Assembly: GCF_050946515.1 (NCBI RefSeq)
Contig: NZ_JBMNUX010000004.1
Span: 160,105 to 184,104 of the forward strand
Length of the DNA stretch: 24,000 bases
Origin: Tractidigestivibacter sp.
GTDB lineage: Bacteria; Actinomycetota; Coriobacteriia; Coriobacteriales; Atopobiaceae
Direction of reading: 5' to 3'
Made by a program: the position numbers and the translations under genes. The notes under the pieces are model-generated. The model ran no database searches. It was not told the origin of the DNA and saw only the letters and a list, made by a program, of their open reading frames with translations. Position 1 is the stretch's first letter. The number at the start of each line of letters is the position of its first letter. Below are positions 9,867 through 18,010 of this stretch, one piece after another.

Positions 9867-9942
9867 TGGAGCCAGCAATCAGACTCGAACTGATGACCCC
9901 CGCTTTACGAGAGCGGTGCTCTACCAACTGAGCTATGCTGGC
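9867..9942 (-). tRNA. tRNA-Thr (anticodon CGU), CCA encoded
   Basis: The reverse complement GCCAGCATAGCTCAGTTGGTAGAGCACCGCTCTCGTAAAGCGGGGGTCATCAGTTCGAGTCTGATTGCTGGCTCCA folds by hand into a cloverleaf. It has a 7-bp acceptor stem, GCTC/GAGC D stem, CCGCT/AGCGG anticodon stem, CTCGTAA loop (anticodon CGT) and ATCAG/CTGAT T stem with a TTCGAGT loop. Confidence 0.9.
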
Positions 9943-16111: not shown

Positions 16112-16702
16112 CTATTGCTGCTCTTCAATCTTCGGCTTGATAATGCCGTATCCGCCATTCTTTCTATGGTAGATGACGTTAACGAGCCCAGTTGTGGCAT
16201 TTGTGAACACATAGAAATCATGCCCGAGCAGGTCGGTCTGGACCAGCGCCTCTTCCTCGCTCATTGGCGTGAACTCAACGTACTTCTCGCGCACGAGGCG
16301 ATCGTCCTCGTCCAGCTCTTCTGCGGAGGGCTGAATCAACGACGCGAGCTCGTCGGCGCTCGCAGCGGGCGGGTGCGGAACCTGCGCGCGCTGACGTCGG
16401 TCGATGATGCGGGTCTTGTACTTGCGAAGCTGGCGGGATACCTTGTCGGCGGCCTCGTCGATGGCGGCATACATGTCATCAGAGCTTGCAACAACGCGCA
16501 CGACGTTCTTGCGGACAAATACCGTGACCTCGCAAGCCTTTCTTTCTGGATTAGAGGGGTTCTTGTCAACGCGCAGCACAACGTCGCAGGTCATAGGAGA
16601 AATATCGAAGACCTTGAGGGCGTCGCCAATCTTTTCCTCAACATGCTGGCGGAGAGAGTCAGAAACTGTGACCTTGCGGCCCGAGATCTTGATGTCAACC
16701 AT
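16112..16702 (-). CDS. hpf: Ribosome hibernation-promoting factor, long form (HPF/RaiA/YvyD family)
   Basis: ORF 16112..16957 trimmed to the ATG at 16702 (MVDIKISGRKVTVSDSLRQHVEEKI), which has AAGGAGG 5 nt upstream. It has the N-terminal S30AE fold plus the C-terminal dimerisation domain (FTPMSEEEALVQTDLLGHDFYVFTN..VNVIYHRKNGGYGIIKP). Confidence 0.9.
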   Translation of the reverse strand: MVDIKISGRKVTVSDSLRQHVEEKIGDALKVFDISPMTCDVVLRVDKNPSNPERKACEVTVFVRKNVVRVVASSDDMYAAIDEAADKVSRQLRKYKTRIIDRRQRAQVPHPPAASADELASLIQPSAEELDEDDRLVREKYVEFTPMSEEEALVQTDLLGHDFYVFTNATTGLVNVIYHRKNGGYGIIKPKIEEQQ

Positions 16703-16758
16703 ACGTGCCTCCTTACGATAGCCACGCCGCGTCTGACGAAAAGGCAGCGTCAGGGCAG

Positions 16759-16790
16759 CCGTTAATAATGTGATACCCAAATGCAAGCCC
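16759..16790 (-). promoter_or_regulatory. AT-rich patch, possible hpf-proximal promoter
   Basis: This is the only AT-rich stretch near hpf. The minus strand reads CTTGCATTTGGGTATCACATTATTAACGG. It contains TTGCAT and a GGGTAT hexamer, which resembles the stress-sigma -10 motif. No hexamer pair has canonical spacing, so the assignment is weak. Confidence 0.25.
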
Positions 16791-16899
16791 GCTGCGGCCG
16801 GCGTTGCGGCAGACGTAGAGATTCCACGGGACGTGCGGAGGCTTGCGCGCGGCTCAGGCACCTTGCGAGAAGAGCTCCGGAAAAGAGCGTCCCACCCAG

Positions 16900-17151
16900 C
16901 TGACCTGGTTTTTGACCCCACACTCGCGCACTGGGGCCTTCGCTTGAGGGGCTGCACGGCCCCGCAACTTGAAACCCTCTCGCCCGCGAGGCCGGATGCC
17001 TCTTTGTTTGTTAGACGGACGGTGCGGCTTACTTCTAGGACGAACCATGATCGCAGGCAGGCGCACCCGCCAGCTTACGTGGATCCCTTTGGCCTCGTCT
17101 GCCATGGACTAGGGCGCGCGTCGCGCCCGCAACCACAGACCTAGGTGGAAC
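16900..17151 (-). ncRNA. Probable raiA-motif ncRNA (boundaries approximate)
   Basis: It lies in the 516-nt ORF-free comFC-hpf spacer, which is the characteristic genomic context of the raiA motif class in Firmicutes and Actinobacteria. It contains dense GC helices (17112-17128; 16948-16963 enclosed by 16923-16928/16985-16990). A perfect TATAAT lies just upstream on the same strand. No covariance-model search was run. Confidence 0.45.
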
Positions 17152-17157
17152 GAAGGG

Positions 17158-17163
17158 ATTATA
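17158..17163 (-). promoter_or_regulatory. Perfect TATAAT -10 box upstream of the structured RNA region
   Basis: The minus strand reads GGACGTATAATCCCTTCG. No good -35 was found 16-18 nt upstream. A consensus hexamer is notable in such GC-rich DNA. Confidence 0.35.
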
Positions 17164-17218
17164 CGTCCTAGCAGCGAAGATAGTGAGAGTGCTTGCGAAA
17201 AAAGCCGCTAGAGCCACA

Positions 17219-18010
17219 TCACCACACGCGTGCGAGCGCGCAGCCGGTGACTGACGCCGCGCCACGGGCGAGAAGGGCGCGAGCCGACTCGCGCATCGAG
17301 GTCCCTGTCGTCACCACGTCGTCGGCCAGAAGCAGGTCAAGGCCGGCCACGTCGTCCACCACCTCGACGGTTCCCGCCAGGTTCTCCGCACGGTCCTTCT
17401 TGCCAAGGGCGCGCTGGTCTTTGGCGTCGCGGCGCGCAAGCACGTCCGCCACGGGAAGTCCCAGCTCGCGGCCGAGAGCACAGGACACGAGCTCCATGTG
17501 GTCAAAGCCACGCCTCGCATATGCAGCTGGCGTGGCAGGAACAAAGCAGAGCGCGTCAATCGCCGAGGGGTCAAAGCGAGCGCAGCCATCCCGGGCCGGC
17601 CAAGAAGACGCCTCGTCGAGCGACGTGGCCATTGCTGCCGCTATGACGGGGGCAAGCCGCAGCTCATGTGCGTCTTTCAGGCATGAGACCATGCGCGCTG
17701 GCGCGCCGGAAAACCCCATCGAGCAGATCACCGTGCGCGTCTCCCAGTCATGCTCGCACTCGGTGCAGGTGAGGTAGCCAAACGGCGCGCCGCAGTCGGG
17801 GCACGCCCAGCGCTGGCAGATCCACGGCAGAGAGGCGCGGCACTTCTCGCAAAGAAGCTCGCCAGGCATCTCGCAAAAGACGCAGCGCGTGGGCCAAAGA
17901 AGCTCGGCGAACGCATCCGCCACGCTAGATGCCCCAATACGCACAGCGACCCCCTTCCAGCTCGTGGACGGGGGTCGCCTCGATTCAACCGATGGTAGCA
18001 CAGCGACCAC
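17219..18010 (-). CDS. comFC: ComF family protein (ComFC-like, zinc-finger + phosphoribosyltransferase fold)
   Basis: N-terminal Cys clusters (CVFCEMPGELLCEKC .. CPDCGAPFG..CTEC) and the PRTase motif LLLADDVVTTGTSM. The longest ORF starts at the GTG at 18010 with no RBS. An alternative GTG at 17944 has GGAAGGGGG upstream and would give ~241 aa. Confidence 0.8.
   Translation of the reverse strand: MVAVLPSVESRRPPSTSWKGVAVRIGASSVADAFAELLWPTRCVFCEMPGELLCEKCRASLPWICQRWACPDCGAPFGYLTCTECEHDWETRTVICSMGFSGAPARMVSCLKDAHELRLAPVIAAAMATSLDEASSWPARDGCARFDPSAIDALCFVPATPAAYARRGFDHMELVSCALGRELGLPVADVLARRDAKDQRALGKKDRAENLAGTVEVVDDVAGLDLLLADDVVTTGTSMRESARALLARGAASVTGCALARVW

Follow-up and report, generated by a model that had tools for sequence, protein, structure and literature searches.

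A single-copy raiA-motif (ModT) RNA gene between comFC and hpf in a Tractidigestivibacter genome

The comFC-hpf interval and the gene within it

The window considered here is a stretch of 24,000 nt from contig NZ_JBMNUX010000004.1 of a Tractidigestivibacter sp. On its minus strand is a train of genes with a single roomy junction: 516 nt, the distance already counted in the initial annotation and confirmed from the ORF ends, separate a comFC-like ORF that ends at 17219 (stop codon 17221-17219) from the hpf ATG at 16702, while the remaining minus-strand junctions are 0 to ~145 nt. A ComFC-type gene upstream and a gene for long HPF downstream (Table 1) are the classic raiA context. Genes for raiA RNA are downstream of comFC in 74% of cases and upstream of raiA/hpf in 66% (PMC10861870), and what the initial annotation had stated of this setting was correct. 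hpf has a strong Shine Dalgarno sequence, AAGGAGG, at 16714-16708. Its frame is open further upstream, across the spacer and into the RNA gene, as a 281-aa GTG ORF (16112-16957, minus strand), and the true start is placed at 16702 because of that Shine Dalgarno sequence and the N-termini of homologues (MVDIK...). Open frames do exist in the gap, one of 124 aa on the plus strand and, on the minus strand, others of 83, 76 and 53 aa; the three tested with Pfam (124, 83 and 76 aa) had no match. Elsewhere in the window a tRNA gene is found at 9870-9942 on the minus strand (Rfam RF00005, 69.6 bits), putatively for tRNA-Thr as the anticodon loop in the cmscan alignment has CGU.

The Rfam raiA model RF03072 (Rfam release 15) matches 17149-16891 on the minus strand with 155.4 bits (E 2.8e-39), where the gathering score is 101.3, and the match spans model positions 1-209 of 209. 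This is the covariance-model comparison that had been proposed as a check, and its outcome, full length and on the predicted strand, together with the covarying helices described below, bears out the suggestion that the gap holds a raiA-motif representative. A permissive Rfam search of 16500-17400 gave nothing except raiA, on which ground a second RNA family inside the gap was rejected. There is one match in the whole 2.31-Mb genome (98% complete), which the relatives of its HPF place among Olsenella-like Atopobiaceae of the Coriobacteriales. In that order the model scores above its cut-off once each in 58 of the 61 genomes that were sampled, the three without a match including one 57% complete and one 85% complete. 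What the gap contains is a single-copy raiA-motif (ModT) RNA gene, typical of a family already well described (Weinberg et al. 2017, PMC5737381; Soares et al. 2024, PMC10861870; Lence et al. 2024, PMC11706538), and the finding is accordingly not new.

The initial annotation had taken the full half-kilobase to be structured. That holds for the RNA at 17152-16888, about half of the gap, but not for the rest: the 188-nt spacer between raiA and hpf folds no better than shuffles (z +1.08) and the end of comFC with the 69-nt leader before raiA gives z -0.5, values on which structure in either part was rejected.

Table 1. Features of the raiA locus and of the RNA it is predicted to specify; coordinates are window positions unless a locus is named, and helix numbers are those of the covariation analysis.
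Feature	Position	Strand	Remarks
ComFC-type gene	17219..18010	-	phosphoribosyltransferase domain (Pribosyltran) and double zinc ribbon
-10 box TATAAT of candidate raiA promoter	17163..17158	-	in this genome without TG extension or recognisable -35
Predicted raiA-motif (ModT) RNA	16888..17152	-	Rfam core 17149-16891 with 2-3 extra P1a pairs at each end
P1a 5' strand, 12 nt including 3-nt extension	17141..17152	-	partner 16899-16888; helix 1, double changes in 13/15 pairs
P2 hairpin, 7 bp, loop ACG	17112..17128	-	17-nt insertion relative to the Rfam model; helix 3, double changes 6/7
P3a/P3b with AU and AAAG asymmetric internal loop (kinked core)	17083..17109	-	helices 4 and 5, paired 100%
P4	17082-17078 with 16922-16918	-	helix 7, invariant
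P5 hairpin, variable arm	17053..17074	-	helices 8 and 9, double changes in 8/9 pairs
PK2 5' strand UG	17046..17047	-	pairs with CA 16914-16913, GGUCAAAA linker; helix 10, UA 20, CG 8, GC 29
PK1 3' strand	17039..17044	-	pairs with P3b loop 17099-17094; helix 6, paired 100%, double changes 3/6
Conserved single-stranded linker CUAGAAGUAAGC, PK1 to P6	17027..17038	-	from the alignment; conserved linker described in PMC12968392
P6	17026-17022 with 16931-16927	-	helices 11-13 cover the P6/P7 evidence
P7: 5-bp base, 14-nt A/C-rich internal loop, distal hairpin 17002-16988	16981..17021	-	helices 11-13
P8 arm, tip GGGGC/GCCCC 16963-16948	16934..16977	-	helix 14, double changes 4/4
Variable spacer and hpf upstream region	16703..16887	-	no detectable structure, no other Rfam match
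GGGTAT box, 70 nt before hpf ATG	16773..16778	-	candidate sigma-B/F-type -10 of hpf promoter
hpf, long-form hibernation promoting factor	16112..16702	-	S30AE and S30AE C-terminal domain
SBP_bac_3 lipoprotein gene between raiA and hpf in other genera	L009:465-1466, L003:543-1475	-	equivalent site in L005, L008, L010-L012, L014, L015, L017

Architecture and its covariation among relatives

Mapped onto the window sequence, the architecture solved by cryo-EM in He et al. 2026 (PMC12968392) is found there complete in its eight-stem subtype: P1a/b/c, P2, P3a/b, P4, P5, P6, P7 and P8, with the pseudoknots PK1 and PK2. P2 is an optional stem, present in 42% of raiA family members (PMC12968392). The GU and GGU bulges of P1, the nucleotides of the G-G-C triple, the AU/AAAG loop of P3 and the UAGAAGUAAG-type linker are all present. 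Read against PMC12968392, these positions are invariant or nearly so in an alignment of 30 loci, and those of the AU/AAAG loop are invariant outright.

That alignment, made with MAFFT and not fitted to structure, draws on the genus, family and order and has 29 distinct rows. When the cryo-EM-derived structure is projected on it, 94.7% of pair cells are paired, in comparison to 83.8% in shuffles and 31-46% with the partners slid, and none of 500 shuffles attains the observed values on any measure. Changes on both sides are seen in 51 of the 81 pairs, so that the comparison with relatives that had been suggested as a check does reveal covarying helices. Over the 29 distinct rows P1 (a, b, c), P3, P4, P5 and P6 are 92-100% paired; double changes affect 12/12 pairs of P1a, 8/9 of P5 and 3/5 of P6, with P1c and P4 being invariant. 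Both pseudoknots covary, PK1 with pairs such as one that is AU in 20 and CG in 9, and PK2 with one pair that is UA in 20 and CG in 8, its other being an invariant G-C. The 'non-canonical' marks on P5 in the Rfam alignment are an alignment artefact, as the stem re-paired here has the 8/9 double changes just given. Helix 16, in P8, is 74% paired, a value limited by the alignment.

How did the helices picked out by eye in the initial annotation fare? GGGCGCG/CGCGCCC (17128-17112) is real and is stem P2, and GGGGC/GCCCC (16963-16948) is likewise real and forms the tip of P8. The helix within which the latter was thought to be nested, CTCGCG/CGCGAG (16990-16985 with 16928-16923), is unsupported: its pair statistics are reached by 91 of 500 shuffles, and it was rejected as a family helix, being no better than shuffles and overlapping the covarying strands of P7 and P6. 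A plain minimum free energy fold of the RNA has a z of only -1.78 with the pseudoknotted core misfolded; by thermodynamic folding alone the raiA RNA would have gone unrecognised. The sole terminator-like call of the region, at plus-strand positions 16988-17002, reads the opposite strand of the distal P7 hairpin and, after it, of the A/C-rich P7 loop, and is an artefact of the RNA gene.

Promoter, ends and the relationship to hpf

The perfect TATAAT at 17163-17158, which had been singled out from the letters alone, proves to be a -10 box conserved in position across the order. A TANNNT begins 10-18 nt before the RF03072 model start in 30 of 30 loci, and 13-15 nt before it in 26 of them; the background for TANNNT is 1.7% per 3-nt window. 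TGN precedes the box in 26/30 loci, and the TATAAT of the window is shifted by one base. A consensus sigma-70 scan called no promoter at raiA in the window because the -35 is poor and the TG extension absent. The positional conservation of the box supports independent transcription of raiA.

One could instead envisage raiA lacking a promoter of its own, as the 3' part of comFC mRNA from which RNases cut it out, with the TATAAT being incidental. It lies on the same strand and only 69 nt past the comFC stop, the T6 run at 17203-17198 has no proper preceding stem so that comFC transcription may continue, and the promoter elements of this genome other than the -10 are the poor ones just mentioned. 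However, a box within a 3-nt span in 26 of 30 loci is hard to reconcile with chance at the background frequency, and it is kept where comFC is 400-1000 nt off or undetected upstream (loci L011, L024, L028, L030, L002, L019 and L027). Further, transcription of C. difficile ModT begins at a single SigA start site (PMC11706538). Expression of competence genes is normally weak, but raiA RNA ranks with the most abundant RNAs of the species studied. An origin from comFC mRNA is, in consequence, very unlikely.

With transcription from the -10 box, housekeeping RNA polymerase would start 6-7 nt past TATAAT, at ~17152-17151, and the 5' end is predicted there because extra covarying P1 pairs match such a start. 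These pairs extend P1 beyond the Rfam model: alignment columns 2-285 and 3-284 are paired in 25/29 and 27/29 rows with 8 and 10 double changes respectively, and in this genus there is a third pair (together columns 1-3 with 284-286), which makes P1a 12 bp long here. The RNA would end at or just past 16888, where the extended P1 closes, leaving both of its ends paired. From the -10 box and the extended P1 we infer an RNA of ~263-265 nt, somewhat longer than the ~200-250 nt originally forecast. No intrinsic terminator is called on the minus strand after raiA or after comFC in the region; a weak hairpin of 5 bp at 16888-16874, with UCUUCUC after it, is unconvincing as one. Since no canonical intrinsic terminator follows raiA, its 3' end probably arises through trimming as far as P1 or through factor-dependent termination, and for want of one between raiA and hpf, read-through from the former into the latter is possible.

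Is the RNA then a leader of hpf? A promoter-like box of a different kind lies closer to that gene. In all 16 loci inspected, including genera where another gene lies upstream of hpf, the hpf ATG is preceded at a distance of 46-90 nt by a tttGGGTAY-type box, GGGTA(T/C/G). Classically, GGGTAT serves sigma-B/F-type factors as their -10, and a SigB/F/G-family sigma factor is encoded in the genome (G000:C11:10537-11208; 288 bits, cut-off 234). The box is probably hpf's own promoter; since no consistent -35 motif could be defined in the 16 loci, we infer that promoter from the box.

The neighbourhood on the hpf side differs within the order. Other genera, both within the family and in the wider order, have a gene for an SBP_bac_3 solute-binding lipoprotein of 310-350 aa, with signal peptide and lipobox, between raiA and hpf, starting 25-90 nt after raiA with no obvious terminator. 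It is absent at the locus of this genus, and the genome has no orthologue, just paralogues of 24-27% identity elsewhere, on which ground the idea that the spacer is what is left of such a gene was set aside. Because the lipoprotein gene separates the two in other genera, adjacency of raiA and hpf is not conserved; direct adjacency is a feature of the lineage, which argues against raiA being an hpf leader.

If raiA acted in cis on the hpf operon, as its 5' leader or in the manner of a riboswitch, it would be part of a TATAAT transcript that crosses the 188-nt spacer, with its fold controlling read-through or translation. It shares with riboswitches and other cis-regulatory leaders a large, highly conserved and pseudoknotted fold upstream of a gene on the same strand, here directly upstream of hpf and with no canonical terminator in 16703-16890, and the closeness of the next ORF in sister genera could be read likewise. 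RF03072 is typed 'Cis-reg; riboswitch' in Rfam 15; the experimental papers favour a trans-acting RNA (PMC10861870, PMC11706538, PMC12968392). What a riboswitch needs, however, is an expression platform and a conserved regulated gene. Here there is no minus-strand terminator, and the spacer is unstructured, ranges in length between 188 and 367 nt among members of the genus and shows little conservation beside raiA, with no conserved helix that sequesters the Shine Dalgarno sequence of hpf. What follows raiA is hpf in this genus and the lipoprotein gene in others, and hpf retains its GGGTAY box even with the latter intervening. There is one copy per genome and, in two Clostridia, knock-outs were rescued in trans, with the authors arguing against a cis role (PMC10861870, PMC11706538). 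The leader interpretation is accordingly most unlikely; hpf, with what seems to be a promoter-like GGGTAT box of its own, would not have the RNA as its leader.

A further reading deserves separate mention. As the lipoprotein gene is missing in this genus and no terminator follows raiA, a strong raiA promoter may, in this lineage only, read through into the hpf-degV-dehydrogenase-NYN/LOTUS operon, with the stable RNA being excised from the precursor. While this is improbable, it would, if true, link raiA RNA production with both ribosome hibernation and an RNase gene in the lineage.

That the gap is a chance GC-rich spacer, or a small-protein gene such as the 124-aa plus-strand ORF at 16770-17144, is refuted by the RF03072 E-value of 2.8e-39 and by the compensatory changes in 51 pairs: open frames are as expected at 61% G+C, the 124-, 83- and 76-aa ORFs are without Pfam match, and the alignment gaps in variable stems are of 1, 2 and 4 columns, not multiples of three. 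Taken whole, the locus is very probably a single-copy raiA-motif (ModT) gene with its own -10 box, specifying a compact trans-acting RNA that is not an hpf leader.

In three genomes of the genus, L024, L028 and L030, the comFC match ends 400-495 nt before raiA, as against 56-94 nt in others, with the -10 box still adjoining raiA, so that something has been inserted between comFC and the raiA promoter. On the other flank only the last ~100 nt of the raiA-hpf spacer align within the genus, and the GGGTAY box falls in this part. L025, L026 and L028, also of the genus, have a ~170-nt insertion in the spacer, giving a spacer of 355-367 nt; it consists of two related ~50-nt units, imperfect-palindrome-like (ttgcat...ttcgat...ctaaccaatcg...), that resemble small mobile repeats.

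Possible role and comparison with known raiA RNAs

In the species studied raiA RNA is transcribed independently and is both very abundant and stable; without it, entry into stationary phase is delayed and sporulation and aggregation are impaired, and it can be supplied in trans (PMC10861870, PMC11706538). It co-purifies with KhpA and KhpB, for which its in vitro affinity is micromolar (PMC12968392). Trans action and Khp binding are known only from Clostridia, or in vitro with clostridial proteins. The genome under consideration encodes a KhpA (97 aa, 73.8 bits, in an rpsP-khpA-rimM setting) and a KhpB-like KH+R3H protein of 201 aa, for which a Jag_N domain was not detected.

By analogy with Clostridium and Clostridioides, the RNA would accumulate as a very stable, abundant, trans-acting species, would probably act in a particle with KhpA/KhpB and may modulate the switch from growth to stationary phase. 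A trans-acting structured RNA tied to the growth-phase transition, with a ribonucleoprotein mode of action, is thus the probable role. The clostridial sporulation phenotypes cannot be its role here, because the host is a non-sporulating actinobacterium.

In comparison to raiA motif RNA / ModT (RF03072) there is no essential difference: the full-length match, single copy, comFC-raiA-hpf context, P1, P3-P6, PK1, PK2, the conserved P1 bulges and linker, and a housekeeping-type promoter directly before P1 are shared. C. difficile ModT, though, has a nearby intrinsic terminator that the window locus lacks, so that a long isoform is not predictable here. The value of the locus is mainly that of annotation, a half-kilobase 'gap' turning out to be the gene of one of the most widespread orphan structured RNAs of bacteria. 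As a clean example from the actinobacteria, in a non-sporulating lineage of the gut or mouth, with eight stems, a candidate promoter and predicted ends, it could serve comparative work on the role of raiA RNA outside Clostridia, while opening no new question itself.

The closest structural point of reference is Ns-raiA, the 253-nt RNA of Nocardioides sp. Iso805N solved by cryo-EM (He et al. 2026, PMC12968392). Both are of the eight-stem subtype with P2 and P7-P8, and share the junction nucleotides U19-G20-C21 before P2 and U-A after it, the AU/AAAG loop of P3 and a 6-bp PK1. P2 is much shorter in the window RNA, a 17-nt hairpin of 7 bp versus ~40 nt, and P7, unlike that of Ns-raiA, is interrupted by the 14-nt A/C-rich internal loop. 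The C-G pair of PK2 in Ns-raiA is replaced here by U-A, a compensated change and also the majority state in the 30-locus alignment.
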